This document shows, in pieces, positions 10,101 to 28,523 of a DNA stretch of 28,523 nt; the first letter of the stretch is position 1; every line of letters begins with the position of its first letter. Source of the DNA: Amoebophrya sp. A120 (taxonomy: Eukaryota > Protista > Dinoflagellata); NCBI GenBank assembly GCA_905178155.1, contig CAJINV010000040.1, positions 4,970-33,492 on the forward strand. Direction: 5' to 3'. A program made the translations under genes and the position numbers. The notes under the pieces were generated by a model. The model searched no databases. It was not told the DNA's origin and saw only the letters and a program-made list of their open reading frames with translations.

Positions 10101-11159
10101 CGGTACGCCTCTTCTGCCGCTTCGTAGTCTGCCTTCTGCGCTGGCGTCTCGAGCATGTGGTTCCGGCGGCCGGGGAAGATCCAGTTTTTTCCTGCGAGAT
10201 GCTCCTGCTCATCGTTAGCCTGAAGGTCATGCGACGAGGATTCCTGCTTTGCAGTGTTGACGTCGGGACCCAGCTTCGGCGACCTGTCGCCGATGTCCAC
10301 TCTCCTCTTTTTGGTTTTGCTTGAAATAGGAGGATTTGCTGAAGCTTGATCTACTTGGTCGTCGGTGTTCGTTTTTCGCGGGCTGATGTGCACGGGCGAA
10401 CTTGTCGATGATAATGAGCCTTGGTTCCCTCGTCTCGTGGTGTCATTCATCAGCACCTGTAGTGAATCTTAGAGTTAGGTTGCAGAAGAGCAGTTCCGTC
10501 ATCGTCATTGAAATGTAGAGCATCAAAAGCGTCTCGAACGAAAATTCAAATATTTGATACCACGAGGTAGTCAAAAAGCATATAATTTTTCAATAAAAGT
10601 GGACCAAGATAGGCGTGCTTCGAAAAAAGTGCGAATCTCGGAAGTTAGATACTTACGACACAACCCACTGATGTACCTGGTGTAGCCCTCGTTGGTTGTC
10701 TGTTTCTTGCAACGTTAGCCGACTCCGGGTCTCCGTATGGATGGCCGTCTGCCAGACTGCTTTTCGCTTTGCGCGCGGTACTGGAATCAACGGCGAGGCG
10801 TCTTCTTCATCACGAGCTGCTGAACTCTTAGCGGCTTCAGTTTCTGTGCCAGCTGCAGGCCAGTCCCAGTCTTCTCCACCCGAGGAAGACGAGCAGGCCG
10901 GTCCTATCACGCCCCTGGCGCGCTTCAGAAATTGCGGCGAGGTTGCCGCTGCCGCCTTTGCGGTGTTTAGTCTCCGCTTCTTGTTGCTCCGACGTCCAAG
11001 CGACCCAGCAGCGGAGAAGGTCGACGCCCGCCTTGTATCTGGTCGTAGAGAGCGAGCGGAGGGAGAGGTTTGTTGATTTCCCGACCCACTGCTTGCTTCT
11101 GCTGCGGTGGCGGTAGAGCGCTTGGATCGCTCCTTAGCATAAGCAAACTCGTGGTTCAT
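4154..11159 (-). CDS. SBNO: Strawberry notch (SBNO) family SF2 helicase-like protein, multi-exon, ~1550 aa in the full model
   Basis: Motifs: QLETI, GFLLGEGTGCGKGR (Walker A), FDECHAAKN, VLYVSAT, LAY|MARLGAW, SRRLSLEGVQF, LALQSTGEA, LPENALDHILNSLGGPEKVAEISGR, AGSTGVSLHA, LELPWS, QQIGRVHRSGQ, plus a C-terminal GTRRQLTATLLCGSFL...VQLRRF...YGILLP block. Exon model (boundaries may shift a few nt): 10677-11159 (tentative), 9188-10456, 7245-9050, 7012-7074, 6526-6827, 6199-6245, 5855-5929, 5341-5639, then tentative 5013-5073, 4767-4831, 4489-4589, 4154-4238. Total 4656 nt, open throughout. The core 6526-10456 is well supported; both ends are less certain. Confidence 0.88.
4244..4488. mobile_element. 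Introner-like inverted-repeat element, family A
   Basis: Ends read inward TATTCAGTACAAATATGTCTGG and TATGCACTGCAAATAGGGGCCTGG. Perfect 5-nt direct repeat TTTTG at 4239-4243 and 4489-4493. Confidence 0.75.
4837..5012. mobile_element. Degenerate introner-like element
   Basis: Ends TATGAAGGGTTGCAAAAAACCGACA and TATCGTCTTGCAAATGCCAACA, with irregular spacing. Removing element plus 5 nt joins DPYWK-R-KDARNVVERHPFMQLK in frame. Confidence 0.4.
5079..5340. mobile_element. Introner-like inverted-repeat element
   Basis: Ends TATGCCAGCAAAAT and TATCTCAGCAAAAT. Removing element plus 5 nt joins ORF 5314-5610 to the frame of ORF 4933-5208. Confidence 0.6.
5645..5854. mobile_element. Introner-like inverted-repeat element, family A
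   Basis: Ends TATGGAATGCAAAAATGTCTGG and TATCAAATGCAAATAGCATGTCTGG. Perfect direct repeat CGTCA at 5640-5644 and 5855-5859. Removal gives VVLARD-GSKWTIARGSVPGRW in frame. Confidence 0.85.
5935..6198. mobile_element. Introner-like inverted-repeat element, family A
   Basis: Ends TATGAGATGTAAATATGTCTGGAGCTGG and TATCCACTGCAAGTATGTCTGCGTCTGG. Direct repeats CGTTA/CGTGA. Removal gives VEAIH-AALDLIGDKK in frame. Confidence 0.8.
6251..6525. mobile_element. Introner-like inverted-repeat element, family A
   Basis: Ends TATGCATTGCAAATGTGTCTGGGTCTGG and TATCAAATGCAAGTATGTCGAGGTCTGG. Direct repeats CGGGT/CGAGT. Removal gives KVEGTR-AAKRLLESG in frame. Confidence 0.85.
6833..7011. mobile_element. Introner-like inverted-repeat element, family B
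   Basis: Ends TATTGTATGAAAAAGTACCGCTCT and TATGCATTGCAAAAGTACCGCACT. Direct repeats TTCTC/TTCTT. Removal gives ADQEE-RIYWSSS, in frame with ORF 6462-6758. Confidence 0.8.
7079..7243. mobile_element. Introner-like inverted-repeat element, family B; also readable as GT-AG intron 7075-7244
   Basis: Ends TATCCTGTGCAAAAGCCTCGCATT and TATGAATTGCAAAAGTTTCGCACT. Removing 170 nt gives SALLP-PALFEDRKSDLKE in frame. Confidence 0.75.
9056..9187. mobile_element. Introner-like inverted-repeat element, family B; non-canonical intron ~9051-9187
   Basis: Ends TATGCATTGCAAAACAAAGCATGATCGCACT and TATTCTGCGCAAAAGTATGAGCGTCGCACT. Removing element plus 5 nt (137 nt) restores the SBNO motif ELAY-MARLGAW between the 440-aa and 632-aa ORFs. 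Confidence 0.85.
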
Positions 11160-12384: not shown

Positions 12385-13500
12385 CTACATTTCGACGTCT
12401 TCCTCCGCCGCCTCGTCTTCCAAAAAGAACAGGTCCGCGCGGACGCAATCAACGTCCGGGTGCTTCTGGAGGTACCGACAGATTTTGCCTGCGAGGTCCG
12501 AGATTTCATTATGCAGGTTGATCCCTTTATTACGCAGCCCAGCCGCGTACCCGGGAATCACCGCTTCGCGGACGACCTGGACCATGGCCTTTCACTATCC
12601 TGAGCAAGAACGTCCCCACCCCAAAGTTGTCATGCAAATTGCGTTGGCAAGCTGTGAACAGGATAAGGACATGGATTTGTAATGCGGCTGCCACAGCGAC
12701 GGCTTCACTGCACTACCATCCAAAGCGGAATCTGTCACGTATGACTTCCAAAATTTGTGGATTTGCAGCGCAGACTGCTCATCTTGACGCTAGAGAGAAA
12801 ACGCTCTTGCAAATGATAGCCATGCGCCTTTTCTCACCTCGTCCTTGCCCGCGATTACTGTGCGGTCGACGTCGAGACGGACCGTCTTACAGGCATCCAT
12901 GCCGACTATGTCGGCCTTCTTGGTTGCGAACGTTTCCCACGTCGGGCCGGAGTCACCGGGTTCCTCCTGGTCGTTTTCCGCGGCGACGCCGCTTGCTGCT
13001 TCTGCGGGAGAAGCGGGTCGCACGTGGTGTTCACGAAAATCAATGACGAGATAGCTGATGCGCGGGTCACGTTTCAAGGCGTCCGTGGCGCGGGAGGCGA
13101 GGGCCTCCACCGCGGCCCACTCCTCCGGCTCCTTGAAAGCACCAAACTTCTCGCGGACCTGCTGCAGGACCTTGTAAAAGTCCACCGTGCGACGCCCCCG
13201 TTTGTCGGTTTTCTTCAGATCGCTGACGGGTCCTATAACGCAGCGCCTACGGGCAGCGGCCAGCCTTTTGCGCTTGCGAATCTCTTCCCTCCGCTCTTCT
13301 TTTTCGTCTAGATCCGCAAGGGTGTCGTAGATGTGATCGACAATATCTGCAGAGCACGAACTCGCCGGCGACGGCGGCGCGGAGGAACAGGATGGAGTTA
13401 CTCCACCGACACGGCGGAGCAGCCGGTCGGTACTGGTAGAGCGATCAAGGTCGCTAGAAAGATCCAGGTCAGAGTCGGTAGAAAATGAGTCACCCGCCAT
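12385..13500 (-). CDS. Hypothetical protein, 2 exons (12819-13500, 12385-12590), ~295 aa
   Basis: The 236-aa and 66-aa ORFs join in frame (VRKGAW-Q-AMVQVVREAV) when the element below is removed. Ser/Asp-rich N-terminus and a basic NLS-like RKRKR. No family recognised. Confidence 0.7.
12596..12818. mobile_element. Introner-like inverted-repeat element
   Basis: Ends TATCCTGAGCAAGAACGT and TATCATTTGCAAGAGCGT. Element plus 5 nt is 228 nt; its removal deletes the stop at 12790 and keeps frame. Confidence 0.75.
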
Positions 13501-13700
13501 GAGTGTGGACTGATGTAGTCTCTCCGGGGTGAATTTATTTAGACTATTTGAAAAAATTCAGCTTCTTGCGATTTCGCAATGGCTTTTGGAACGAAGTCAG
13601 TTTGCTGTTTTTGGTGCCGATGGATTGCGAAGAGCACGAGTTCGCGGTGTTTTTTGCTACCCGCAGAGAAATCGATGCGAATCGCTCGCGGATCAAGTAC

Positions 13701-13740
13701 GAGCCAAGTATGTGAACCGAGAGCCAAGCATGTGAACCGA
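13701..13740. repeat. 20-bp tandem duplication
   Basis: GAGCCAAGTATGTGAACCGA followed by GAGCCAAGCATGTGAACCGA (1 mismatch). Confidence 0.85.
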
Positions 13741-14060
13741 AAGCTTGGCTGCTGGTGATATTATTGCGCTCTGTCGCAAATGCATCTGCATACTCACTCA
13801 GGAAAGCGTTTGTTTTTTGCTGATATTTGAATCGAACCCGACGAGCAAGATGTTGAAGTTGAACACATCGCACGCGCGTTACGAGTTCACTATGCGAAGC
13901 GAACGCCATGTGCATTACTCTGGGTCTGTGTCTGGACTGTAATTGCTCTAGAAAAGCGTTCATGCGACTGTACTGCTCGTCGCCTGTCTGACGTGCGTCG
14001 TTGTAATATGAAAACTTTAAAAGTATGATCTTCTGATAGTATGATCTTCTGACAGTCTAT

Positions 14061-14708
14061 TCACCACGTCGCATCACAATCCGCTGCCCAGCGCGCTTTA
14101 TCCTCGTCGGTCATATCTGTGAAGTCTGTCGTTGGTGAACAAATGCCGGCATACGTGGGTGGCGCAGAACAGCCCGCTACAGTCTGCGACCACTCCTGAG
14201 GGCACGGAGCTGCAAATTCGGTAGATTTGCTACTGCACGGCCATGCAGCACCGCATCTCCACGCCCAGTCGACTTTGTTGGCTAGGTCCATGGTCGAAAA
14301 GTTGCGCTCGCCACAGAAGCCTGAGTAGCTAGATCCAGGAACGCACACTGCACCGGCTGAATCAAAACCAACAGGGCAACCGCTGAAATTCATTGGACAG
14401 CCTCCTGCAAAGAGTTGCTTTCTCAGCGCAATGTGTACCGCGATAAAGCTGTCTTTTGTTAGCGCACTCAGAGCCATTTCGCTGGAGACCTGCTCGGCGA
14501 GGGATGCCGTTCCGGCTGCTATTGCCGATGCTTCATTGGCAGAGGCGTCTCCGACAGATTGCTTGTACGCGGAAGAAGATGTTGTGGCGCTTAGGATCTG
14601 GCTGAGCGTTTGGCTAGCTCCGGCAGCACTGCCAGGAAAAATAGGGTCGGCAGTAACGATACGCGATGTTATTGTGCCCAGGACCACCATCGCCGCGCCG
14701 CGCCGCAT
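14061..14708 (-). CDS. Secreted CPW-WPC domain protein (2 domains), ~215 aa
   Basis: ATG at 14708 after a T-tract; signal-like MRRGAAMVVLGTITSRIVTA. Domains CPMNFSGCPVGF...C...YSGFC...KVDWAWRCGAAWPC and APCPQEW...C.APPTYAGIC...KARWAADCDATW. Confidence 0.9.
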   Translation of the reverse strand: MRRGAAMVVLGTITSRIVTADPIFPGSAAGASQTLSQILSATTSSSAYKQSVGDASANEASAIAAGTASLAEQVSSEMALSALTKDSFIAVHIALRKQLFAGGCPMNFSGCPVGFDSAGAVCVPGSSYSGFCGERNFSTMDLANKVDWAWRCGAAWPCSSKSTEFAAPCPQEWSQTVAGCSAPPTYAGICSPTTDFTDMTDEDKARWAADCDATW

Positions 14709-14738
14709 TTTGTTCCAATGTATGGATTGCACCAGTTG

Positions 14739-14752
14739 AAAAAAAAAAAAAA
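14739..14752 (-). promoter_or_regulatory. T-tract upstream of ATG (example of a motif present before almost every array gene)
   Basis: T-runs or T-rich tracts lie roughly 15-50 nt before the ATGs at 14708, 15908, 16735, 17484, 18416, 19347, 19933, 21374, 23343, 24653, 25306 and 27672. Candidate trans-splice polypyrimidine tract or dinoflagellate TTTT-type core promoter. Confidence 0.55.
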
Positions 14753-15098
14753 CTGTTAATTCCGAACCTAGTGCAGCAATTTCGGGTTTTAGTGCTGAAG
14801 CAATTTGGCGGACCCACAAATCACAACGATTTTTGGCAGCAAAATTTGGTGCGAGTGCTCGCTCCTCTCAAATTCTGTCGAGAGCTGATGTTCCGAAATA
14901 TGGTTGAAAGACTCTGTAGCAGCGCGGCTGAGAGTATGCAGCTGCGATGTCGCACGTGCAGTGACGCAGATTTATTGCACTCTATTCAATGGATCGCGCC
15001 GCCAACCGTGGTCATTTTCACCAAGCTTGTTCCACATTTAGCTGTTTCTTGCAATGTTGCCTTTGGAGAGGCATCTCAACTTGCTACATGAAGTACGC

Positions 15099-15908
15099 CT
15101 ACATCCAGTACGCTCCGCAACGATGCTCCCACAGTGCGAGCATCTTGGCGTTGAAGCCAGTGAAATTTTGCACGTCGGTACACGGTCCAGCATAAGATGG
15201 AGAGGGTTTGCACTTATGTATTCCCGCTGGAGCAAATCCGACGGGGCATGTAGCCGAGTAGGAACGGACGCCCGAAGCACATGGCCAGGAAAATCCACAC
15301 TGTTCCTCTGCACGCATTTTTGCTTCGAGGTTCATTGCTTGAAACGAATAGGGTCCTTTGCTGCAGCTTCCTCTGTAGGTGCTGGCCATGCAGGTTCCGT
15401 TTTGCGCCACTGAGAAGCCTATTGGACAGCTTCTGTAGTCCTTGGGACAGCTCCTTATCAAACCGCTCGGCGTAGCTAAGTGTGGCCTTGGTGTGTGCGA
15501 CATCCCGATCATCATTTCCCGAAACCCGGACACTTCGCTATTCTGTGGCTCTGGCCCGGAAGGAATAGCCGAGAGGGATGAAAATAGTCCGTCCGCAGAA
15601 GAGGCTCTCCGCAAAAAACTGGTTTCATGCCATGTCGAGCGCGGACTTGTGCCCTGGCTGTAGCTTTGTTTCACCAGGATGCTTCTGCCAGAATGTACGG
15701 TGCCAGCATCCGTATGCGCTTCCCGAAGTTCAGCAGGGAATGGCGGGAACGTCCGTGATGGAATCAATTTAGAGAACAATCCGCTTTGCTGCGTTGGCGC
15801 TGCTGTGATTGGCGTAGTTGCGAGGCGGATGGCTGGCAAACGCACGGCTGCAACGGCTGTGATCCCCGGGAGTACGAGGTGCGGCAAGGTAGCGAGTCTG
15901 TGAGCCAT
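15099..15908 (-). CDS. Secreted CPW-WPC domain protein (2 domains), 269 aa
   Basis: Hydrophobic N-terminus; TSFLRR. Domains CPKDYRSCPIGF...YRGSC...KMRAEEQCGFSWPC and RSYSATCPVGF...YAGPC...WEHRCGAYW. Confidence 0.9.
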   Translation of the reverse strand: MAHRLATLPHLVLPGITAVAAVRLPAIRLATTPITAAPTQQSGLFSKLIPSRTFPPFPAELREAHTDAGTVHSGRSILVKQSYSQGTSPRSTWHETSFLRRASSADGLFSSLSAIPSGPEPQNSEVSGFREMMIGMSHTPRPHLATPSGLIRSCPKDYRSCPIGFSVAQNGTCMASTYRGSCSKGPYSFQAMNLEAKMRAEEQCGFSWPCASGVRSYSATCPVGFAPAGIHKCKPSPSYAGPCTDVQNFTGFNAKMLALWEHRCGAYWM

Positions 15909-16267
15909 TGTGATGTGCGTCGACTTGGCAGAAGAGCACTTTAATTAAACTCAAAAAAAAAACTACAACGGGAGATTGTTCTAGGATTTTTTGAGTGATC
16001 CGCACAGCTTTTATGGCAAAGGCCGATGTCTTTTCCGGTACCTTTCAGGTGGCACGCAGCACTGTCATAGGATTTTCATTTCAATCACGGCAATTTGCGT
16101 TTTCACTGACCAAATGCTTTATGACAACGATTGCAGAACAGCTGAGTTGAGAAAACGTTAGCACCTGTAGGCGATTTCCGCGCATTGTGGTCAAACCAGA
16201 AGAGCCACGCGTTTTTTATCAAAAACAAAAATCGTTTGAGGGATCAAAAGCTAGGGCATCTTGAAGC

Positions 16268-16735
16268 TTACGCACACGGAAAGGTGGCTCCACACTTCCA
16301 AGCAAAGTCTGTTTTCTGTGCGTTGGTCATACCAGAAAACGACCGCGGGCCGCAGTACCCTGTATAGGATGCCGTCGGGTAGCAGGTTCCATCAGACAAA
16401 GTGAAGCCGATGGGGCATCCAGACATATCCATGGGACAGCCACCAGCGTAAAGCTGTTTCCGCACCGCCACGTGCGCAGCAACATACGCGTCCTTCTTCA
16501 GGCTTTCCAACGCTAGAGCTGACGAAACCTCTTCTGTCAGGGCGGCCGTTCCGGCCGCGATGGCAGCAGCTTCATTGACCGACGCGTTGCCGATGGACTG
16601 CTTGTATGCCGAACTGGAGCTGCCGGCCGACATAATGCTAGCTAGACTACTGGCTGCAGCTGCAGCAGAGCCCGGGAAAATTGGATCAGCCGACGCGATA
16701 GCGGCCACCGCCGAGAGAACAGCAAGACCCAACAT
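16268..16735 (-). CDS. Secreted CPW-WPC domain protein (1 domain), ~155 aa; paralogue of 14061-14708
   Basis: Signal MLGLAVLSAVAAIASA. ADPIFPGSAA...SSSAYKQS.G.AS.NEA.AIAAGTA is shared with the paralogue; ends KTDFAWKCGATFPCA. Confidence 0.9.
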   Translation of the reverse strand: MLGLAVLSAVAAIASADPIFPGSAAAAASSLASIMSAGSSSSAYKQSIGNASVNEAAAIAAGTAALTEEVSSALALESLKKDAYVAAHVAVRKQLYAGGCPMDMSGCPIGFTLSDGTCYPTASYTGYCGPRSFSGMTNAQKTDFAWKCGATFPCA

Positions 16736-17148
16736 ATTTTTTTGGCGCAATCAAAAAAAACAAAACCAACTAAGTGACTTGATATGAGTGAAGTATAATT
16801 GCGCAATAGGCCATACGTGTGTAAAATACCAAGTTTGATTGCAGACGGCATTGGCTTTGTGCTATGCGTTCTGATGTCTTACTTGCCATCCCTCCAAGAC
16901 ACACGAGCGCGACCCCTATGTCGTCGACAAGCGAAGGCATGCAGTGCAGCAGTGGACAAGTAGTCGACACCGAGATTTGCCACGAAATACTTCTGAACAG
17001 AACTGGAGGAAGGACTTTTTCATGTGCACTGACAAGAAGTGGCTTTTCATGCCTGCATACTGTGGCTCGCAATTCTTTATCAGCGTTCTTTGCAATACTC
17101 CAATCTCAAAGGGCGAGAACAAAGACTTTACGACCCGGCATTGGTTCC

Positions 17149-17484
17149 TCAGGCGTGCAGGTGCAGCTGCACGATTGGCGACTGCGTTTTGCGCTCTGGC
17201 AGGTAGCCCCCCGACGCTCCCATGATACGCGAGACCAAACCACGCAAGAGGGCTCCTTTGCGGGCTTGCAAGAAGGAGCTTGATTGACCGGTCGTGTAGT
17301 CTACTACGGATCCTCCTGCTGCCGCAGCGGAAGCGGCCCCATTAGAGGACGCGGCCGCCTGATATGCTAGTCCTGCGGACCTGTACGCCTTGGCGGCTGC
17401 GGAAATGTCAGAAAGATCGCTCTCACGCTGAGCCGAGACAAAAACTCCCATCAGGGCGCTCAGCACGACGGCAAGGCGAAACAT
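17149..17484 (-). CDS. Small secreted Ala-rich protein, ~111 aa
   Basis: Signal MFRLAVVLSALMGVFVSA; SSFLQA; ends in beta-strand-like SPIVQLHLHA. Confidence 0.8.
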   Translation of the reverse strand: MFRLAVVLSALMGVFVSAQRESDLSDISAAAKAYRSAGLAYQAAASSNGAASAAAAGGSVVDYTTGQSSSFLQARKGALLRGLVSRIMGASGGYLPERKTQSPIVQLHLHA

Positions 17485-17795
17485 TTTATTTTTGAAAAAG
17501 CTGGGAGAAAAAAATAACTGGAGCTGTAGTGGCTTGGGTGGAAACACATACTACTTTAGTGGCAGCCTGCGTATTTTTCTGGTAGTTCTTGAAAAAGTTG
17601 AAACCGCCACGACGTCACTCCGAGCAAAAGATAGCTGCTGGCACGTCTCTCACCACCACACATTCCGCTCAACAGCACGCAGTCGAGAACGAACAGACAG
17701 AGTCACCAGCCTGTAGACGCACTAGATAACGGGGCTTCGCATTACTTTCTATATGGCGAGAATCTTCGAATCAAAACAAGGTCCATTTTAATATT

Positions 17796-18416
17796 TTAAC
17801 CCAAGGCCGAGGCGATCATACCATTTAACGCCTTGACAAATTGGATCTGCATGTCCATGATCTTGCCTTGCATGGCCACCTCTGAGGCGTCGCGGGAGGA
17901 CTCAGTGGCCTGCAAAAGATCCACGGTGGATGCCCACGGAATGTCAGACGCCTTGACTTTGACGCCGATGGAGCCGGACCCTTTTTGGAGGAAGCTGGCA
18001 TGGAGCGCACTCTTCAACTCCCCGATCACGATTTTGGCCAAGGCGCCAAACTCTGCAGTGGCCTGTGCAATGGTCTTCGATTCCAAATCTGCGCGAACAT
18101 TTTCAAAAGCAGCAACACGGCCAGCAGACGCTCCTGATTCCGGGGCGTTCATCACGCGAATGAAAACTGGCGCGCCTTGGAGAAACGAAGAATGATGCAC
18201 AACAGCGTCAATCTCCGCTTTAGCAGATGCCAGCGCTGCAGTCATGGCTTTCTGGATTCCATTCATCCCGGATGCTTCCATAGCAGACTCTGCCTTTCCG
18301 TAGGACGCGAAGCCGCTCCCGGCATCCACCGGAGGCGCTAAGGCTACCTGGATAAGCGGCTCACTGTCAGCAGCAACGCTGCCAATCAAGCACGCTGTGA
18401 GAATTTTCCCATACAT
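17796..18416 (-). CDS. Secreted protein with three strand+helix modules; resembles apicomplexan blood-stage antigen 41-3-like proteins, 206 aa
   Basis: Signal MYGKILTACLIGSVAA; EPLIQVALAPP...SSFLQ...EFGALAKIVIGEL...ASFLQ...VDLLQATESSRDASE. The family resemblance is from memory and unverified. Confidence 0.85.
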   Translation of the reverse strand: MYGKILTACLIGSVAADSEPLIQVALAPPVDAGSGFASYGKAESAMEASGMNGIQKAMTAALASAKAEIDAVVHHSSFLQGAPVFIRVMNAPESGASAGRVAAFENVRADLESKTIAQATAEFGALAKIVIGELKSALHASFLQKGSGSIGVKVKASDIPWASTVDLLQATESSRDASEVAMQGKIMDMQIQFVKALNGMIASALG

Positions 18417-18690
18417 TTTCCTGAACTGTGAGAGCAGAAAAAAAATCTACTGAGAGGAAGATGTTTATGTCTGTAAAATGCATAAAATGCACGTGTGCAA
18501 GATTTTGTAAGCTACAGTTGATTGCTCTAGTTGCAGGTTTGTTTGAACGAGTCTTGGTCTCTCAGTAGTGAACAGAACACGAAGTGGTCGCGGGACTCAT
18601 TGCTGGCTGGATCAGAAATACTTTGGACTCAAGCAGATGCGACTCAACAACATTTAACAAACACTAGCACATTCTCAACAGGTCGATGTC

Positions 18691-19347
18691 CTAGTGCGAG
18701 AGCGCTGCGGCACCGATGGCATTCAAAGCCTTCACCAGCTGCATTTCCTTTGCAAGGATCGTGGTTCTGAGCCTTGTTTCACCCGAGTCGCGACGAGCCT
18801 CCATGTCACCCAACAAGGCCGACACAGTCTTGTACGATGGGTCTGCGCCGACGCGCACGTTGATTTCGCGGGAAAAGCGCAAAAAACTTTTGCGTCCGCG
18901 TAATTGCTTGTCAAACTCCGCGATCACAACTTTGGCAACCTCTGAAAATTCCTGCTTGGCTGACGAGACCAGAGCACCCATTGCCGCAGAGCGTTTGCCC
19001 TCTAACGCCTTGACCCCGGCAACACCCGCGGACTCATCTGAGGTGGCGCCTTCAATACGAACGGAAATGACCGGCTCCGCAATGTTCGCAAAAGACGCAC
19101 GGCCCATGGCTTTGGAAATGGTGTTCCCGAGCGTTGCCGAGGCTTGGGCCAGGGTCGACTTGTACGCGGCGTCGATTTCAGCCAGGGCTGCGTGTTCAGC
19201 TGCGAGGCGGCTTGACTCTGCGGCAGCAATAGCACTTGACACCGCTGGATAAGGGGCGGAAGGGGATGCTAAACTCAATTCCACCACCGGCTTGCCAGCG
19301 CGGACCAGCACGGCACAGGCACTGAGCGTCGATAGCAGCTTTGCCAT
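18691..19347 (-). CDS. Secreted paralogue of 17796-18416, ~218 aa
   Basis: Signal MAKLLSTLSACAVLVRA. KPVVELSLASP, EFSEVAKVVIAEF, KSFLR, LLGDMEARRDSGE and MQLVKALN are collinear with the neighbour. Confidence 0.85.
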   Translation of the reverse strand: MAKLLSTLSACAVLVRAGKPVVELSLASPSAPYPAVSSAIAAAESSRLAAEHAALAEIDAAYKSTLAQASATLGNTISKAMGRASFANIAEPVISVRIEGATSDESAGVAGVKALEGKRSAAMGALVSSAKQEFSEVAKVVIAEFDKQLRGRKSFLRFSREINVRVGADPSYKTVSALLGDMEARRDSGETRLRTTILAKEMQLVKALNAIGAAALSH

Positions 19348-19648
19348 ACTTGATTTTGGGAAAGACAAGTAGATACTGATACACAAAAAAACAGAATCCT
19401 GCGTGAGGCAGAAGGACAGACGGGTTGATGGTACGGGAAATCCACGTTGCCTTTTGCGAGAATCTCCGAAATCATGCGCCAATGCGCAGGGGGGAAGATC
19501 TCTCACCACGCTCAGACACGAAACACAAACACGAAACGCCGACGCGATCCAAATCTGGGCGGAGCCAAAGCTTTTTCAATTTTTGCTTTTCAATGGAGGA
19601 AATCAAATTCTGAAGAACTACAGTCCGAGTCAGGTCATTCTCAATCCC

Positions 19649-19933
19649 CTAGCCCAAAAGGTCACGCGCGGTTGCCTCATTCATTTTTTCCATGCTGATC
19701 ATGGACTGCAGTGCGCTGTTGGCATGAGCCCGGCGCCGAGCTAAGAGTGCCAAGGTTGCTGCCTCAGATCGGCGCATCTCAGCAGAGCGCCGCGCCGCGA
19801 TTGCATCTGGAATGGCGCTTTCCAACGCAACGTTGATCACTTCAACAGGTCCAGCAGAGCCGTGGGTAAGAATGTCCTTGTATCCGAAGGCGCACCCGAT
19901 CAGGGCAAAGAACAAGGCCGCAACGCGCATCAT
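19649..19933 (-). CDS. Small secreted protein, ~94 aa, single strand+helix module
   Basis: Signal MMRVAALFFALIGCAFG; PVEVINVALES followed by an Ala/Arg-rich helix. Confidence 0.8.
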   Translation of the reverse strand: MMRVAALFFALIGCAFGYKDILTHGSAGPVEVINVALESAIPDAIAARRSAEMRRSEAATLALLARRRAHANSALQSMISMEKMNEATARDLLG

Positions 19934-20240
19934 TTGTTGTAGCTTTCCCGTTTGCAAAAAAATCCTGAAGATTCACTTCAGTCACAATAACGAGAGCAAC
20001 ATGACTCCAATCAAAATATGCGTTTTGGGTAGGCGACGAGCGATCTCTCCCGCTTGTCACTTGCTTTTTGTCCAGTCCGTTAGCGAGGAAGAAGCGACTC
20101 AGAGCAGAACAGAGAGCAGAAAAGGCCTGCAAGGCTCAGTAAAAGCGAAGTTTTTGAAGGAAATATTCACTTGAATGCGAGACATCCACTGCTATTCTCT
20201 TGAAATGCCACCCGGGATGCTGTCACGGGATTGTGAGTTC

Positions 20241-21374
20241 TTATGCACTAGGCACCTTGGCGGAGCCAGATCCAAAGTACGGCGAGTTGACAATGGAGTC
20301 CGAGCCCGTGCTGTAAATGTCAAATCCAGATGCCGTATTTTCCAAAGCCGCGAGGGAGGCCGGCGCGACCGGGCACTCTGCGGGGACGGAAGTCGATTCT
20401 TCAAAGCTGCTGTACTGCGGCGGCAGGTTGTCACTCCGCAAATACAGAGCCATGGTGCACATTGGCGGGGCAGAGACGGTGCTGCAGGTGTCAGCAATGT
20501 CTGTGATCCAAAAACCTGGGCACGCGACCAAAGTGGCGATGCAGCTTGTGAAGCAGAGTGGCAGGCGACCGACCGGAGTTGGCTCGTTGCGGGCCATTGG
20601 AGTGGAGCACCGCGGAAAAATGGCGCCGCATTGCATAGACATGTAGGTCTTGAAGCACAGAGAATACGCCGCGCTACCCGTTTTGCCAACACGGTCCTTG
20701 TACAATGCCGGAAACGAAGCAATGGTGCCATCCAACTGGGCATCAGTCACGTCAGCAGTGACAAAGTCGGCAGCAGTGATTGGGTACAACACGGAGCCGA
20801 CACAGTTGTGGCCAGTAACCATTGGCATGCAGGGAAGCGGTTGGTTCATCCACACGGGGGGCGGCACCATTGGGGGAACTATCTGCAGCACGGTGGACAT
20901 TGCAGCCTGAATCAGGCCAGCACCGGTGGCAAGACCATTCATAGCGAGCATCTGAGGCATACCGCCTGCAGCTCCCGCGGCTCCAGATTTGCTTGCTAAC
21001 TCTGCGACCATCTTGCTGACGTCAAATCCGAAGAGACGCGACACTACCCCTCCCGGGAAAGCTGAAACTCCCTTGACAGCCACCGCAGCTGGGGCGATCC
21101 CATAGTCGCAGTGCGGGGTAGACGAGCCGGTTTTGTAGTCCTGCAAAAAGGAGACAGCGGTGTCCAACATGTTCAGGTGCGTTTGGTAAGAATTCACATC
21201 AAACTCCTTGGCCATTTTGTCATAGACCTGCAAAAACGCCTGCTCCATTTCTGGAGACTGCTCTTTGAACAAGGCGATATACGCATCAGACCCGTGCAAG
21301 TTTTTGTCTGCCATCTCTTGGCTGGTCATCAGTGCGGACGCACCGATAACGCAGAGAGACGCGACCCGCAACAT
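20241..21374 (-). CDS. Secreted Cys-rich protein with Frizzled-CRD-like domain, ~377 aa
   Basis: Signal MLRVASLCVIGASA; AFLQ and SFLQ. PPPVWMNQPLPCMPMVTGHNC...CFKTYMSMQCGAIFPRC...RLPLCFTSCIATLVAC has FZ-type cysteine spacing. Confidence 0.88.
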   Translation of the reverse strand: MLRVASLCVIGASALMTSQEMADKNLHGSDAYIALFKEQSPEMEQAFLQVYDKMAKEFDVNSYQTHLNMLDTAVSFLQDYKTGSSTPHCDYGIAPAAVAVKGVSAFPGGVVSRLFGFDVSKMVAELASKSGAAGAAGGMPQMLAMNGLATGAGLIQAAMSTVLQIVPPMVPPPVWMNQPLPCMPMVTGHNCVGSVLYPITAADFVTADVTDAQLDGTIASFPALYKDRVGKTGSAAYSLCFKTYMSMQCGAIFPRCSTPMARNEPTPVGRLPLCFTSCIATLVACPGFWITDIADTCSTVSAPPMCTMALYLRSDNLPPQYSSFEESTSVPAECPVAPASLAALENTASGFDIYSTGSDSIVNSPYFGSGSAKVPSA

Positions 21375-21684
21375 GATTTGATTCTTTGTAACAAAGAAAA
21401 AAGTAGCTAAATGCGCGTTAAATGAAGAGGTAGGTTCATGACCGCTAGGAAATGCAATTGTATACATATACACAAGCCGACGAAGAAATTTGCTTCGCTC
21501 ATTGTCTCTCCACACGAATCCGCGGTTGTGCAACGAAGAACATCATGAAATGTAGAAAAAAACAAATATCACGCAAGAAAGCGGGAAGACCTAGAACGCG
21601 AGAGAGCGGTGCTTGAGCTGTTTACTTAATTGAAAACAAACGCAAAGGCCTTGGACGCGTTTTTGGAAGTCCTGATTAAGTGAG

Positions 21685-22235
21685 TTACGCACACGGGAAC
21701 TCTGCGCCAACACTCTCCGCAACGGCTTGTTTTTCAATAGCCGCCAAACCAGAAAAGGAGACACTGCTTCCAGACGCGGAGACGCAGGCATCACCCGACG
21801 GGGCCCATCCCGAAGGACAACCAGCGTAGTTGCGGGCACAGGTCACCGCCGAAAAACTTACACCTTCTGCAACAGCAGCCGCCTGGAGTGCGTCGGATAG
21901 GGTAGCCTTGATCATCATGGCCGATTCACTGGGGTGGGCCGCCTTCAAAGAAGATTCTAGACCTGAAGTGAAGAAGTAAATTTTGACTGTAAGAGTTTTG
22001 CACGGTTAATAAAGTCATCATATGTAGTCTGAAAGTTATAAACACCTCTAAGCAGTTGGAATCTTGTACCTGCCAGCGCTGGAGCGCGCAAAAACGACGC
22101 ACGATCAGCGATAACGTTCACCACGAGAACGTCGCCTTTGTTCACATCAGTGAAGATTTCTTTAGGCAGGTCGAATGGGACAGTTGCCAAGCAGGATGCG
22201 ATCCCGCAGGCGAATGCCACGACGAACGACTTCAT
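21685..22235 (-). CDS. Secreted protein with degenerate C-terminal CPW-WPC domain; 2 exons (22070-22235, 21685-21962), 147 aa
   Basis: GT-AG intron 21963-22069 (G|GTACAA...TTCACTTCAG|GT) joins ASFLRAPALAG to LESSLKAAH in frame. Domain CARNYAGCPSGW...C...EKQAVAESVGAEFPCA. Confidence 0.85.
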
Positions 22236-22548
22236 TGTGTGGGCTAGTTGTATTTGAAAGAAACGCAGCTACAGCTTTGGTAATTGCAGATGCAATGGTG
22301 ATGATGCTCGAGTTGCGTCCTCACGGTTGTACAAGCACGCCAGTTTGCTGCCGCTTTTGTTTTTGTTCATCTACACTCACCAAACAATGTGAACACACGA
22401 CTCATTGGTTTTGCAGAAAAAGAGAGCGAGTGAGCTCCGGACGTAAGCGCATTCACAGGGAATTTGATTGTATTCAGTTCAGACATGTCTGAATTGCTGT
22501 GCCTTTCCCGAGAGTCCTGCGCCCGCGAGACAAGACTGAGGAAGCGGT

Positions 22549-23343
22549 TTAGTGGTAGAGCGAACCCGCCAGGGAGTCCGCCGCCATAGCTCCAGCCTTC
22601 AACTGTGCGATCTCCTCTTCAGCCCCATAAACACGACTTGGCGACGGCAGCACGATGTTTGTGTGGCCATAGGCGCCGGTTGCAGAGTCACTAGACTGGA
22701 ACGAGACCGGCATGTTGGTCAGGAACGTGATCAAAGAACCGGCCATGTCCCTGGTGGCATCTGGGGTACTTTCCTTCTGTGCGAGATTTTTGACTTTGAA
22801 CAGGAGGGGCTGCATGGCAACGCGAGCATTGGGCAGAGAAGCAAGATCCAACAATCCTGCGACACCATGCTGTGCAGAATAGCCACCAGCGTCAACGAGC
22901 GACCCGTAGTAGCTGACTGCATCTTTGAAAACAGATCCATCTGCACCCTCACGCTGGAGATCGGATAGCGGCGTGCGCAGAAAGGATTTGTGTGCCGCGC
23001 GTTCTAACATCTGCACTTCCTGTTGCTCGACGCCAGCCAGTGCAGTTGCAGCGGCAGCACGATCAGCTGCGAGCGACGCAGACGCGGTCTCACCTACGTG
23101 CAAGTTCAACACGGGACGCTGCAAGAAGCTGTACTTTTTAGCCGCAGCGCTCATCACTGCCTCCACGCCGGCGTTGCGCAGCACTGGTTGGGCCAGCGCA
23201 GGCGCAATTTTTTGCTGAAAATCCGCGGAATTCGAGCTGATTCCAGCAGAGAGCGCCTCACCCAATTGTTCACCGACCGCGAAAGACGGCATAGCCGCCT
23301 CAGCAACGGCAGCGAAAGTGCAGGCGACGAAAAGTTTTGACAT
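22549..23343 (-). CDS. Secreted protein with two SFL motifs and a helical (ARM-like?) C-terminal region, ~264 aa
   Basis: Signal MSKLFVACTFAAVAEA; YSFLQRPVLNLHVGE; KSFLRT; C-terminal AGSLITFLTNMPV...GAYGHTNIVLPSPSRVY. Confidence 0.85.
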   Translation of the reverse strand: MSKLFVACTFAAVAEAAMPSFAVGEQLGEALSAGISSNSADFQQKIAPALAQPVLRNAGVEAVMSAAAKKYSFLQRPVLNLHVGETASASLAADRAAAATALAGVEQQEVQMLERAAHKSFLRTPLSDLQREGADGSVFKDAVSYYGSLVDAGGYSAQHGVAGLLDLASLPNARVAMQPLLFKVKNLAQKESTPDATRDMAGSLITFLTNMPVSFQSSDSATGAYGHTNIVLPSPSRVYGAEEEIAQLKAGAMAADSLAGSLYH

Positions 23344-23647
23344 CTTCCTGGCGATGATTCCACGAAAAAAAACACGACGCCAAGGACTTGTGCTACGGCA
23401 AGTCAAGCAACATTTCTCTTTGATTTCTCTTTGATTACGCGGGCTGATTCTGTCTCTTTGATTACGAGTATTGCATTTTTTGGGTGGCCGCTCGTTGTCA
23501 CGACACATGAGCACGAATTTAGGAACACATATGAACGTGAGACGCTGGAAAATACATTGTGGAAAATGGGAATCAAAAAACTATCAGGATTTCATCAGTG
23601 TATTGTCGCGTCCGATTTTTTGACACGTCACCGGTTTGGCATCCTGC

Positions 23648-24653
23648 CTATGGCGGGCTGGCCACTAACGGGCTGCCAATAACCTTGCATTTGCTGGTGA
23701 CGGCCTGTTTTGTGTAAAGGGAAGGAAATCATGGGAAAGCCTCCTGATCCGGCGCGACGCAATTAATCACAAAAGAAAAGCTACACGGATCCCCCCGTAC
23801 TAGTCTATAGAAAAAATAGCTGAATAGTGTACCTTTGTGGCCTCCCAAACCGAATCATTGATGCCCCAGACCTTTCCCATCAACGAGTGGACCGGTCCGC
23901 AAAACGGAGCGAATCTGAGCAAGCACGTGCTGGCGGTGTAAACGTCGATGCAGGCACACAGAATTTTGGTCGCAACACCCAATACATGGATTGGGAGGTT
24001 GATGGCTTGGTAGATGGCCAGGGTCGCGACACGACCGAAGTTGCAGCGGTTGCCCAGTGCCTCCACCAGCTTGCAGGACTTGGCGTCAAGGTATGCCAAA
24101 CAAAAATACCATTTCTGTCCGATTCTCAAACCGCATGTAAGCTCTAACTAAGCTCTCCGTCACTCCGTGAATACACCTGAGTTTCAGTACTGAATGCAAG
24201 AATTACATTGTTGTCTGGGCATTTTGGTAGTTTTGTTTATGATAAAAAGCAGGGCGCGTCCATCATTGGAACAGCAGACGACAAGGTGCTGCGCTCTTTC
24301 AAAAAGGCGCTGTGGGTTGCCTGGAACTCAGCTAGCGCCGTGGTCGGGTCCTCATGCTCCACAGCGGCTTGGAATTCCTTCATTTTGTTGAAAGTGTCAG
24401 CGGTTTGTTCCTGAAGTGCAGACAGGACCGTTTTGCCATCCTTCTGTGCAGTCGACATCACGGAATCCCAGTACTTCACGCATTCCGCACCACAGTCCTT
24501 GCTCAACACCTCGCGGACCTCATTCAGCTTATCCAGCGGCACCTCAGTGTGCTGTGCAGGGAGGGACAGCAGACGGTTCCCCGCGGTGATCCGCTGCGAC
24601 ATGGACAGAGCGCTGGCGCCCGCCACAACCGTCAAGGATACAGCAACTTTCAT
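23648..24653 (-). CDS. Secreted Cys-rich protein, 3 exons (24245-24653, 23833-24086, 23648-23704), ~239 aa
   Basis: Signal MKVAVSLTVVAGASA. The introner-like intron ~24087-24244 and GT-AG intron 23705-23832 give DAPCF(Y/D)AKSCKLVEALGNRCNFGR...LCAC...CLLRFAPFC...WEATK-AVTSKCKVIGSP. Confidence 0.78.
24092..24244. mobile_element. Introner-like inverted-repeat element
   Basis: Ends TATGCCAAACAAAAATACCA and TATCATAAACAAAACTACCA. Removing element plus 5 nt joins ORF 24237-24653 to the frame of ORF 23800-24129. Confidence 0.82.
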
Positions 24654-24919
24654 CTTAGTGTCTCAGTTTGGAAAAAAAACGCACTATTTGGGAGACGAAT
24701 GCGTTGGAAAGACTCAATGATTGACTTGGAGGGTTTGGCCATTTGATTTTGACAAAAGACCGGAAGAGCAAAAGCCATTTTGGTGCGGTCGCGCCCAGAC
24801 GAACACATCATGACGACATAAGGCATGAAGGACCAGTTTGGGTCTCTGTGTAGGTTAGTTACTAACTTTTATCAGGAGACTGTTATTGTCACTTGTTTAC
24901 ATTGTTGGAGTGCCACTGT

Positions 24920-25306
24920 TTACACGCGCAAGCTAGCGAGACCCGCAGAAAAGGCTTGCATATCATAAGCAGCTTGGCTAGAGTCAGCGACGGAGGAAGC
25001 CGACGCAGTAAACTCAGGGCGTTTCTCCACGATGTTGACCTTCGCCGGAGAGTCGGTCCGCATTGGCTGCGTCAAAAACAAAGCCTCCTTGACCATGCCT
25101 GGAGATCCGGCCCACGCAGCAGCCCCAGTTTTAAGGAAGGAAGTTTTGCCCATGACTTGGGAGTGCATGAACGCCTGAATGCGAGCCTCCAATGCAGCAA
25201 TGTCTTTGGCGCTTGCTGTCAGGTGTCCCGGGCCAGCAACTTTGATGGACTCTGCAGTGCAGCAGGCAAAAAAAGCCGCAACCGCGATAAAGAGTGTACG
25301 CAGCAT
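24920..25306 (-). CDS. Small secreted protein, ~128 aa
   Basis: Signal MLRTLFIAVAAFFACCTA; TSFLKT; PAKVNIVEKRP followed by a helix. Confidence 0.82.
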   Translation of the reverse strand: MLRTLFIAVAAFFACCTAESIKVAGPGHLTASAKDIAALEARIQAFMHSQVMGKTSFLKTGAAAWAGSPGMVKEALFLTQPMRTDSPAKVNIVEKRPEFTASASSVADSSQAAYDMQAFSAGLASLRV

Positions 25307-25654
25307 TCTTCGCAAGAAGTTCTAGTTTCAGGTTCTCTATTCAAAAAAAGTGCTACAAGATTAAGAGGAGACCGTGCAATGTTAGTCAAGCAGACAGTGT
25401 TGTAGTAAAACGTTAGGCGACGGCAGCTTTGGCATCAGGTTTGAGTGCACAGCATTCACTCCGCTCTGGACGTATCCGAGTCCTAGCCTGTCTCTCAAGG
25501 CAGCGTCGAACGAACAGAATGATTGAGCAATGACGTTCGAGGCTACACAGCCCAGCGAAGAATCTGAGGAGTGGGGTTCTCTATTCCAACTTAGAAACGA
25601 GTGCACTAGAAGAGTCACGCTTAGCTGCGGTAATCAGGCGACACAGGTTGCTGC

Positions 25655-26212
25655 TTAGTACGCGACATCGCAGAAGATCTGCGCTTCTTGCTTCTCCGCG
25701 ACGCTCAGGTCAGACGGCAGGCCTCTGGTGCAGAAACCCGAGTAGCTTCCGGTAGGATTGCACGTTCCCGCGGTCTCCACCCATCCAGACGGGCAGGTAG
25801 CGGTCGGTCCAGTGAGTCCAGAGAGCTTAGTCGCGGCCGCCGCAACCTGTTGGGCAATTGTGGACAAATCACCGCTGGACAGTCCGGTCAGCTTCAGAAA
25901 GCTCGCAGCACCCGTGGAGTAAGGCAAAGTAAACTTGCCGACGGTCGTGGGCGACGACCCCATTGCGGCTTTCACCGCTGCTGTGAGCTGCTTCTCCTCC
26001 GGCGATGACGGAGCGGCAGCAGCAAACGCTTCAGCGCCCGCGAGTAAATCTCCGGTCACCCCTCCCAACTTCGCATCCGACGGCATGGTGGCAGCAGTCA
26101 ATCCAGCTGCACCTCCTCCAGACAGCGAGCCGATAAGCCCCGACGCTGCCGACGCGCTGTCCCTCACTTTGAGGGCGGAGGCGGCTCCAAAAAGGCAGAA
26201 AACAACGCGCAT
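25655..26212 (-). CDS. Secreted Ala/Gly/Ser-rich protein with C-terminal CPW-WPC-like domain, 185 aa
   Basis: Signal MRVVFCLFGAASA; ASFLKL; TCPSGW...C.PTGSYSGFC...EKQEAQIFCDVAY. Confidence 0.85.
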   Translation of the reverse strand: MRVVFCLFGAASALKVRDSASAASGLIGSLSGGGAAGLTAATMPSDAKLGGVTGDLLAGAEAFAAAAPSSPEEKQLTAAVKAAMGSSPTTVGKFTLPYSTGAASFLKLTGLSSGDLSTIAQQVAAAATKLSGLTGPTATCPSGWVETAGTCNPTGSYSGFCTRGLPSDLSVAEKQEAQIFCDVAY

Positions 26213-26553
26213 GTTGCTCGACTAAAAGGTAAACTAGATTTCTTGGTTCTAAATTTTGTTGGTCATGGACACAATGAGGAGAAAAATAATCCAGGTGGCC
26301 GTTTAGATTCCAATCTCTCCGCGAAACAGCATATGACGAGGACTATAAATTTGCTTACCACATTTGTTTCTCATCACTCAGCGATTGGGGTGATGACGAC
26401 TCATATAGAACACAGAAGAAGAAACTATTTTGATGGAGCGCATGAAGAACTCACGAAGCAGAGTTGAGATTTCAAAAGCGAAACATAGACGCGTTTTTCA
26501 TCAGTCAAATGTAGGAAGGTCCGCTCGAGCGGCTCCGGGCGCCAAGGAGAGAT

Positions 26554-27672
26554 TTAGCGCAGCTGTGACTGCAAGCTGGAAATGGCCTGCATCTCACCCT
26601 TGACAGCTGCGATATCTGCACCGGAGACGAAGGTCGGAGTCTCAATGTCCACGTTCAGCACCGGAGCGGAGCGCGGCACATCATCACCACTCAGGAAGGA
26701 GCTGTGGGACATTTCAGCTTCCAAGCTAGCGAGGCGCTTGGCCGCGTACGCAAATCCGTCAGCCGTCAGGCGTGCCATATCTACCTTCTTGCCCTTTGAA
26801 GCGGAGTCAACCATCACGTGCACAGTCGGCTCACGGGAAGGAGAGGCCTTCAAGAAGGACGCGCCCAAAGCAGCGGAGCGAATGGCTTGGAAGGATTTTT
26901 CAATGCTCTGCTCGAGCGACGTCTTGATGGATTGGTACTCACTTTCCAGGACCGAGGCCGGGGCACCTGCTTCAAAGTACACGTCAGTCTTGCCCTTTTG
27001 CAGAAAGGACGCGGCTTTCAACGCGGCCAACTCCTGGGTGAACCCTGCATGTGGCACGTCATAGTGGATGTCGATCACAGACGGGAGCGAGGCCTGCATG
27101 GTGGACTGAATGGCAACTGGCGGCACGAAAGGCTCCAGAAAGCTGGACTTGCCGCGCACGATCCGGCCGATCTTCGCGATCTCTGCAGAGAGCATAGCCT
27201 GCTTGAGGGATGCGTCCGCGGCAGCTTCGGCCGACGACTTTGCAGATTCAGTTTTGAAAATAGACGAGACGGCAGCGTCAACCGACGCCTTGTCTTCAGC
27301 AGGAGCGTGCAACACGAATTCATGATCCGCAGCTGGAGCGAGCGACGAATAACCCTGGAGAAACGAGTGATGCGCGCCAACGATGCTGTGAACCTTGGCA
27401 ATCTCTGCGTTCAGAAGACGTTGCTTGTCCGCTAGCCCCGCCGCTTCCAGACCCTTTTCATGGGCCTTCTCAACAGCCATCAGCGCATCAATGTCAGCGT
27501 TTGCCTCGGCAGATGGCATGGAGGGGGGCATCAGGTTCAAAGTGTAAGGAGTCGCGTCGGCGGCCTTACCCGCAATGCCCGATGCCACACCCGGCGGCAC
27601 CATTTCCAGCGGGTCAGGGAACATCCGCGCACCATGAGCGCACAGGGAAGTCGCTGCAAGCACACGAAACAT
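26554..27672 (-). CDS. Secreted polyprotein-like protein with five SFL motifs and internal repeats, ~372 aa
   Basis: Signal MFRVLAATSLCAHGA; SFLQ, SFLE, SFLQ, SFLK, SFLS. Modules 1 and 2 are homologous (KQRLLNAEIAKVHSIV vs KQAMLSAEIAKIGRIV). Confidence 0.88.
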   Translation of the reverse strand: MFRVLAATSLCAHGARMFPDPLEMVPPGVASGIAGKAADATPYTLNLMPPSMPSAEANADIDALMAVEKAHEKGLEAAGLADKQRLLNAEIAKVHSIVGAHHSFLQGYSSLAPAADHEFVLHAPAEDKASVDAAVSSIFKTESAKSSAEAAADASLKQAMLSAEIAKIGRIVRGKSSFLEPFVPPVAIQSTMQASLPSVIDIHYDVPHAGFTQELAALKAASFLQKGKTDVYFEAGAPASVLESEYQSIKTSLEQSIEKSFQAIRSAALGASFLKASPSREPTVHVMVDSASKGKKVDMARLTADGFAYAAKRLASLEAEMSHSSFLSGDDVPRSAPVLNVDIETPTFVSGADIAAVKGEMQAISSLQSQLR

Positions 27673-27957
27673 CTTGTTTCTGTGACTAACAAAACAAAGA
27701 AAAAGATTCACTACAAGGATCACACGCTTCAAATAAGCATTGCAGACCACATCTGGGAGCTCGCGAAGTTTGGTAGGCCTTTTGCATTTGCGCTCATTAT
27801 TTGGGGCAACGATTTGCGCTCATTTTGTAACGTTTGAACAAAACGACACTCAAAGGAGTGGATCTCAGACCTTTTGTCGCGGTCCGTCAGAAAACTCTGA
27901 TTCAATCATTTGCACTGATATTCACGCACAAGTCCGCGTTGCTCTTGGATCATCAGT

Positions 27958-28523
27958 TCAGCATCCTCCCGGACAGGACGCAGCCGCCGAGGCGTAGGTC
28001 GGGTGCGGCCGGGGGGCATGCTCCATACCCAACATCATTTCCCGGAAGGCAGCCAAGCCCGTGGTGTCCGGCTGCGGCGGGACCGGGAGACTTCCCATGG
28101 CGCCCAGAATCGCATCGCCTTTGCGCAGAAAACTGGAGGGAGTGAGCGCCGCCAGAAGGGCCTGCAGGTGTTTTTGAGTACAGAGTGAGTATGTTATTTT
28201 TCCCGAGCAGAAAAATGTGTGAACAAACGAGCGACGAGAAAATGCAGATTCACAAAGAAAGAGTATTATACTTTATCAGAACGCAACTCCTGAGCCGCCG
28301 CAGCGATACGATTGTCCAGCGCCAAGCCGCTTTCCATGGACGACATGGCCGAAGCCGCGTCAAAGGCCGGGAAGTGGTACCGGACGTTCACTTCTGGCAG
28401 GCTGTGGGCAATTTCACCAGTGAATTCTGCTTTTTCAGCCGGGAGGCCGTAATTTCCGGGGGCCGTCGGCGAGTTAAACGCCGTGAAGCCAGCGACGAGC
28501 GTCGCGCACGATGCAAAAACAGT
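27958..28523 (-). CDS. 5'-truncated secreted protein, 2 exons (28272-28523+, 27958-28161); absent from the ORF track
   Basis: Open frame TVFASCATLVAG...PEVNVRYHFP...RSDK, then GT-AG intron 28162-28271, then ALLAALTPSSFLRKG...FREMMLGMEHAPRPH...SCPGGC*. Homologous to FREMMIGMSHTPRPH in 15099-15908. Confidence 0.8.

Follow-up and report, generated by a model that had tools for sequence, protein, structure and literature searches.

Why does the same tripeptide recur in one protein after another of a gene array, and what does it do there? The DNA analysed here (the window) is 28,523 nucleotides of contig CAJINV010000040.1 of the dinoflagellate Amoebophrya sp. A120. Its right half is filled by 15 short genes, all on the minus strand, which run from 14061 to the right edge and thus overreach on both sides the array extent (15099..28161) given by a first-pass annotation of the letters (Table 1; genes are named by the left coordinate of the gene or of its open reading frame, ORF). 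That annotation had counted 17 copies of S-F-L-x in 11 of the 15 array proteins, with five in 26554-27672 and two each in 17796-18416 and 22549-23343, and had proposed that they are maturation-protease sites. We found all of these copies, on the minus strand. Their fourth residue is Q at seven sites, R at five, K at three, and E and S at one each.

SFL at the joints of a modular array

The 14 intact ORFs of the array hold 16 SFL copies in 10 ORFs, compared with a mean of 1.0 and a maximum of 6 in 20,000 shuffles. SFL is the most enriched tripeptide in this set (Bonferroni 4e-10 over 8,000 tripeptides), and four control ORFs outside the array contain no copy. The 17 copies are encoded by 12 distinct 9-mers with both classes of serine codon (10 TCN, 7 AGY); hence SFL is not a DNA repeat. 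It is ruled out as a universal feature of the cluster, since 4 of the 15 array genes lack it. Two supposed variants also fell away: AFLQ of 20241 occupies an unremarkable place in a helix (A in 53 and F in 67 of 89 covered relatives; helix 41-57), and AFLK of 24237 is not retained in 3/3 orthologues.

SFL marks joints between modules of 40-90 residues. The four matches of 26554 (372 residues) are rearranged relative to it. P0001, from Amoebophrya AT5.2, and P0002 consist of a signal peptide followed by modules 3-6 of 26554, starting where 26554 has S-F-L-E; in the AT5.2 protein the signal ends beside the same L-E-P that comes after S-F in 26554. In P0003, modules 1-2 of 26554 are joined via SFL to the 21957 gene, and in P0004 the 27958 gene is joined via SFL to modules 1-2. 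Both P0003 and P0007 have a 21957-type gene fused behind 26554-type modules. Neither 19649 nor the C-terminus of 18691 or of 17796 has an SFL; their fused relatives carry one at that place. In 5/5 module pairs inspected, a signal peptide of the stand-alone gene takes the place of the SFL in the fused form.

We ran hidden Markov models (HMMs) of the modules, built from linker-free seeds, on 320 proteins and found that 22 carry modules of at least two window gene families. At joints linking modules that are separate in the window, SFL is present in 12/20 and the loose pattern [SAG]F[LIVM] in 15/20 (joints to CPW-WPC are omitted from this count), compared with 0.03 and 0.5 expected from module interiors and 0.4 and 2.5 from shuffled joints. 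The 20 joints are not independent: P0003 and P0007 are near copies, five fusions of 19649 to the protein family of 17796 and 18691 (family A) may go back to one event, and one joint, in P0257, has poor resolution. Some 11 kinds of fusion can be told apart. The 19649 module is found on either side of family A, and P0172 chains modules of four window genes, three recognized by HMM and one by eye. Over 261 joint sites picked by a loose pattern, S is kept in 69% and L in 82%.

Family A extends these observations beyond the window. A profile of 18691 and 17796 retrieved 292 proteins, the best 150 of which were examined; the module HMMs recover 147 of them. SFL is present in 103 of the best 150, with 149 copies versus 12.5 expected. 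It lies in 59/131 first and 66/145 second linkers, and the loose motif in 93/131 and 119/145. At least one linker bears the loose motif in 117/123 complete three-module proteins (27 incomplete rows are excluded), and the six without it are scattered. The linkers are 4-152 residues long. In the model of 18691, three helices of 43-46 residues are connected by two linkers with a predicted local distance difference test score (pLDDT) below 50 (predicted template-modelling score, pTM, 0.63). The family A model favours the first-pass placement of the motif in linkers; in the model of 20241 the site lies in a helix. The Vitrella member, P0187, has SFIE in both linkers, and its tree neighbours have SFLE twice, and SFLQ/SFIQ.

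Other searches with these proteins gave little. Foldseek (best E 1.1) and VIA (best Z 10.3, a designed bundle) matched the family A fold to generic helical bundles only, a metagenome scan with 18691 alone yielded no relative among 571 pattern matches, ESM Atlas returned no usable match for 18691 or 24237 exon 2, and no longer homologue of 24237 exon 1 was found among 1,349 candidates. One family A protein, P0287, is joined to an IPP transferase domain, probably through merged gene calls; the name of P0291, 'tRNA dimethylallyltransferase', may have arisen in the same way.

A conserved cluster of crystalloid-associated families

Family A bears some resemblance to the Plasmodium antigen 41-3. A 14-residue peptide of that antigen (PMC5071865) has 7 identities, counted by eye, to the start of module 2 of Vitrella P0187 (chance ~0.005). 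Family A is probably a relative of 41-3, though the link is weak; the antigen itself is called of undefined function (10.64898/2026.03.22.713451). PF09717 (CPW-WPC) scores above cut-off in 4/18 ORFs scanned. The Plasmodium berghei LAP3 interactome includes six CPW-WPC proteins, PBANKA_0620300, antigen 41-3, plasmepsin VI, DPAP2 and an M16 peptidase (PMC7487766). Besides the LAP3 interactome, PBANKA_0620300 belongs to that of TPM2, and knocking it out reduces sporozoite transition (PMC7487766).

Judged by sequence, 20241 is a homologue of PBANKA_0620300. It has 113 homologues, including proteins of Besnoitia, Cyclospora and Plasmodium, and the family has members in free-living Polykrikos. The Plasmodium yoelii protein P0121 falls in the cluster of P0101, a match of 20241 (E 1.4e-64), and agrees by eye with the listed signal peptide of PBANKA_0620300 at 19/21 residues (65.1 versus 63.4 kDa). 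The likeness of 20241 to Frizzled (Fz) is weak: the Pfam E-value is 0.079, below cut-off, and the best Foldseek rows are Fz-type cysteine-rich domains (CRDs) at E 0.17 or worse. At the Amoebophrya SFL position, the Plasmodium relatives (P0094-P0113) have a K/R-rich stretch, perhaps another processing signal. Taken together, the cargo of the array points to a crystalloid-type organelle and not to rhoptries or micronemes, and we consider a crystalloid-related organelle probable on balance.

Scanning metagenomes with the 20241 alignment yielded 68 loci, about 23 of which, of at least 1.7 kb, were compared with the array. Three of the clusters found, L024, L032 (copy L031) and L041 (copies L040, L042 and L043), lie on one strand in altered gene order and share a gene set: relatives of 20241, 24237, 22549 and 21957, family A twice, 26554 modules and several CPW-WPC genes. 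Orthologues of 23648..24653 are present in L024, L031/L032 and L041, genes like 24920 and 17149 occur in some of the three, and the intron-rich contigs L057 and L063 have similar neighbours. Proteins of the rearranged contigs with a related gene set are 42-48% identical. Amoebophrya often has its genes in one-strand blocks, so a shared strand says little by itself; a gene set that persists through reordering and fusion says more. SFL is enriched over whole ORFs in L041 (6 versus 0.66 expected). Site by site in orthologues, the looser motif is kept in the second family A linker (5/5), in 21957 (3/3) and in 25655 (2/2). The larger result is a conserved modular gene cluster linked to crystalloid-associated families.

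Single loci add variants of this arrangement. Family A is fused to a 26554-type module at L024:10330-11571, L041:4043-4960 and L032:5984-6925. In L002 a 26554-type gene lies on the opposite strand from the Fz-like gene, and an ORF at L017:2888-3250, by eye like FKBP-type prolyl isomerases, adjoins the Fz-like gene.

Proposed cleavage at SFL and its alternatives

SFL is almost certainly a functional linker motif. It is likely cut in vivo, and we find it fairly likely that it is the cut site of a secretory-pathway protease acting between F and L, on proproteins of one shared organelle. The proprotein or polyprotein reading offered at first pass gains from the fusion and fission of genes, the exchange with signal peptides, the variable linkers that keep the motif and the low-confidence family A linkers. 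Hydrophobic signals at their N-termini would take the precursors into the endoplasmic reticulum. Hydropathy scanning (not SignalP) found a hydrophobic N-terminal stretch in 13/13 tested array genes with a complete start (14061 is read from inside its own signal and the last gene, 27958, is cut by the window edge) and a strong internal membrane segment in none of the 15. In a later compartment, a pepsin-family aspartic protease would cut S-F from L, reading P2-P1' and tolerant at P2'. The pieces, mostly 32-99 residues and many with predicted long helices, would then assemble, together with the CPW-WPC and Fz-like proteins, to form the matrix of a storage or extrusive organelle related to the crystalloid. 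A split gene with a new signal peptide would yield the same piece as a cut, which would explain why fused and split forms exchange freely.

In NFLQ-like sites, plasmepsin X (PMX) cleaves the bond that joins the two hydrophobic residues (PMC10113190, PMC9352755). The reported consensus, cut after F, is SFh[Q/E/D] for plasmepsin IX (PMIX) and SFhE for PMX, and the substrates of plasmepsin VI are described as unknown (PMC13637054). For Toxoplasma, mapping placed the cuts behind the fourth residue, and no consensus for ASP3 was obvious (PMC5595437). Chromera has clade B enzymes (PMC8540915). The S-F-hydrophobic core shared by PMIX, PMX and ASP3 at P2-P1' is present, by definition, at 17/17 sites, so the match to the PMIX/X/ASP3 code proposed at first pass is confined to these positions; P2' departs from it at 9/17. 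Because only 8/17 sites obey the P2' rule, we do not file these proteins as PMIX/X substrates, though they may work alike; the first-pass label is unsupported in the form given. The chance that the cutting enzyme is an aspartic protease is about even, and membership of the PMIX/X/ASP3 clade and of the plasmepsin VI clade are each improbable.

Several points count against cleavage as we propose it. No cleavage product, new N-terminus or protease was observed in this analysis. P2' is Q, E or D, as in the PMIX consensus, at only 8/17 sites (R, K or S at the other 9) and at 31-44% of family A sites. In the 20241 family (25 of 114 rows dropped for lack of cover; a quick tree), SFL at the joint is found in 9/89 rows and missing in 80/89 relatives; it is present in 7/7 rows of the Amoebophrya clade (support 99) and in 0/8 apicomplexan rows. 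The SFLQ of 20241 lies inside a predicted helix (60-83, pLDDT ~80). The loose motif is absent from 38/131 first and 26/145 second family A linkers, SFL is not enriched in L024 (2 versus 0.57) or L032 (0 versus 0.56), and orthologues keep the motif poorly in 22549 (1/6 aligned sites) and 24237 (0/3). The modules are also partly repeats of one unit, so that the copies are not independent and inheritance explains part of the count: among 33 window modules, A1, A2 and A3 are mutually similar (E 3.5e-4 to 4e-7), and B1, B2 and C resemble that unit weakly. The proteins were first called otherwise dissimilar, which is true in part; 17796 and 18691 are paralogues whose three modules are mutual repeats, and modules of 26554 and 19649 are weakly similar. 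We know of no localization of these proteins in a dinoflagellate. As for the organelle, LAP orthologues are reported absent from dinoflagellates (PMC11285972).

Chance, composition or a DNA repeat would suit a motif of three residues chosen after the fact, but this explanation is refuted by the Bonferroni value, the 12 different 9-mers, the conservation in relatives and the excess at joints over both nulls. SFL could be the conserved end, a helix cap, of an old strand-helix repeat that multiplied by duplication and is read by no shared enzyme or receptor. The mutual matches of A1-A3 and the weak ones of B1, B2 and C agree with this; however, unrelated precursors (Fz-like and CPW-WPC) carry the motif as well, within the 20241 family it is limited to the Amoebophrya side, and its place varies in linkers of 4-152 residues, well away from the helix end, which makes the explanation very unlikely.

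The motif might instead be functional and uncut, as an organelle sorting signal or as a Phe-Leu anchor that docks a module on the next subunit. Its conserved hydrophobic core with a free P2', the helical site of 20241 and the joint modelling of the three family A helices (pTM 0.63) speak for such a role, and no sorting signal is known for crystalloid proteins according to PMC7487766. For sorting, however, a single copy would suffice, and 26554 has SFL at each of 5 joints; 4/15 genes and single modules do without SFL, the latter until they are fused, and the exchange with signal peptides better fits a new N-terminus. We therefore regard an uncut motif as rather unlikely. Cleavage could also be real and the organelle a different one, with the array encoding cargo of an apical invasion organelle that a genuine PMIX/X/ASP3 orthologue processes, in the manner of the rhoptries and micronemes of apicomplexans. 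The P2-P1' residues fit the PMIX/X consensus, and Amoebophrya has rhoptry-like dense bodies and, in its dinospores, raised cathepsin D transcripts (PMC6176090), but the homologies point to the LAP3 interactome, 9/17 sites break the P2' rule, and family members occur in free-living Polykrikos and Vitrella. This variant is distinctly unlikely.

Going further, cleavage between F and L could have a long history. The array might be an ancient dinoflagellate/syndinian cluster for the LAP-independent core of a crystalloid-related organelle, with subunits that are interchangeably separate genes or cut polyproteins, and with a motif from the common ancestor with apicomplexans at the root of the PMIX/X code. 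This is doubtful as it stands, though it predicts substrates for plasmepsin VI, antigen 41-3 first. To our knowledge, it is unusual for eukaryotes to have clustered organelle-cargo genes that alternate between split and polyprotein forms. No paper on the motif or the cluster in dinoflagellates was found among the top-ranked open-licence literature. Crystalloid function and origin and the substrates of plasmepsin VI are described as open questions in malaria (PMC7487766, PMC13637054). Through linkage and fusion, the conserved dinoflagellate cluster points to candidate partner subunits, and the predicted cut sites are exact.

Gene models and comparison with known systems

Contigs of run X1 (presumed RNA) span 23/30 bins of 13500-28523 and skip four stretches, three of which have GT-AG ends; 14061..14708 is outside their coverage. 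They corrected three gene models, in which ORFs 21957 and 24237 and the gene 27958-28523 are first exons of spliced genes. The fourth stretch, a 158-base intron at 24088-24245 on the minus strand, lacks GT-AG ends and matches the non-canonical introns of Amoebophrya. Such introns and unidirectional gene blocks are reported from this genus (PMC7789003). The 14 spacers within the array (14061-28523) are strikingly even, at 266-413 bases, and most array genes have a T-rich tract ~15-50 bases before the ATG, a possible trans-splice acceptor. The closest named proteins are from Amoebophrya A120 (64%), AT5.2 (60-65%) and A25 (52-53%), which by itself makes a syndinian (MALV-II) dinoflagellate the likely source. 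Left of the array, a Strawberry-notch-like helicase occupies 7239-10450 (minus strand) and is split, by an intron or a frameshift, into two ORFs whose frames differ and which abut at 9134-9137. Between helicase and array lie two ORFs free of signal peptides, 12790-13500 (no Pfam family at cut-off) and 10653-11159 (minus strand).

Table 1. Genes of the array, with motif positions and supporting matches
Location	Strand	Description	Support
14061..14708	-	CPW-WPC x2 protein, paralogue of 16268, no SFL	Pfam PF09717, 84 bits; 61% to 16268
15099..15908	-	CPW-WPC x2 protein; SFLR 15609-15620 precedes module shared with 27958 gene	Pfam PF09717
16268..16735	-	CPW-WPC protein, no SFL	Pfam PF09717
17149..17484	-	Two-module protein, SFLQ 17266-17277	Similar modules by eye at end of fused relatives P0177, P0212
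17796..18416	-	Family A, three helical modules; SFLQ 18177-18188 and 17985-17996	
18691..19347	-	Family A, three long helices; SFAN in linker 1, SFLR 18877-18888 in linker 2	Probable relative of Plasmodium antigen 41-3 (weak link)
19649..19933	-	Single module, no SFL; joined to family A via SFL in relatives, in either order	
20241..21374	-	Frizzled-CRD-like Cys-rich protein, PBANKA_0620300 homologue; SFLQ 21141-21152	113 homologues
21685..22235 (ORF 21957)	-	Spliced: short module, SFLR 22086-22097, degenerate CPW-WPC; intron 21961-22067	
22549..23343	-	Three-module protein; SFLQ 23119-23130, SFLR 22975-22986	C-terminal module in clusters L024, L032, L041
23648..24653 (ORF 24237)	-	Spliced Cys-rich protein, 239 aa, AFLK only; introns 24088-24245 (non-canonical), 23704-23831	
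24920..25306	-	Two-module protein, SFLK 25130-25141	Module within four-gene fusion P0172
25655..26212	-	CPW-WPC protein, SFLK 25892-25903	Pfam PF09717; motif kept in 2/2 orthologues
26554..27672	-	Six-module polyprotein-like ORF; SFLQ 27355, SFLE 27133, SFLQ 26998, SFLK 26848, SFLS 26689	
27958..28523	-	Spliced gene open at window edge; intron ~28161-28270; SFLR 28123-28134	

As a layout, the array resembles the unidirectional blocks of Amoebophrya in having all 15 genes on one strand and a non-canonical intron. Those blocks are reported not to track function (PMC7789003), whereas the gene set of this array survives rearrangement. With the PMIX/X and ASP3 sites (SFh[Q/E/D], SFhE, S-phi-X-E) it shares the Ser-Phe-hydrophobic core in secretory precursors. 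It differs from them in that P2' is often R, K, G, A or S, in its other substrates, and in having up to five sites in one protein, between modules. By its mode, the proposed system is likened to ciliate dense-core granules (Paramecium trichocyst matrix proteins, TMPs; Tetrahymena Grl and CTH3; PMC4142616, PMC2119969). There, too, precursors are cut to small subunits that pack the organelle core, and ciliates process granule proproteins with an aspartyl cathepsin (PMC4142616). The motif and domain content of TMP/Grl proteins differ, and Pfam gave no such family in the window.

The crystalloid and its LAP3 interactome offer the closest parallel in content, with four CPW-WPC genes, the PBANKA_0620300 homologue and a probable 41-3 family in the window. 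LCCL, PH and NTH genes, which belong to the crystalloid/LAP3 set, were not found in the window by Pfam scan, and at the place of the Amoebophrya SFL the Plasmodium 0620300 family carries a run of basic residues. The locus tags in the LAP3 interactome table span many Plasmodium chromosomes, whereas their counterpart genes are clustered here.

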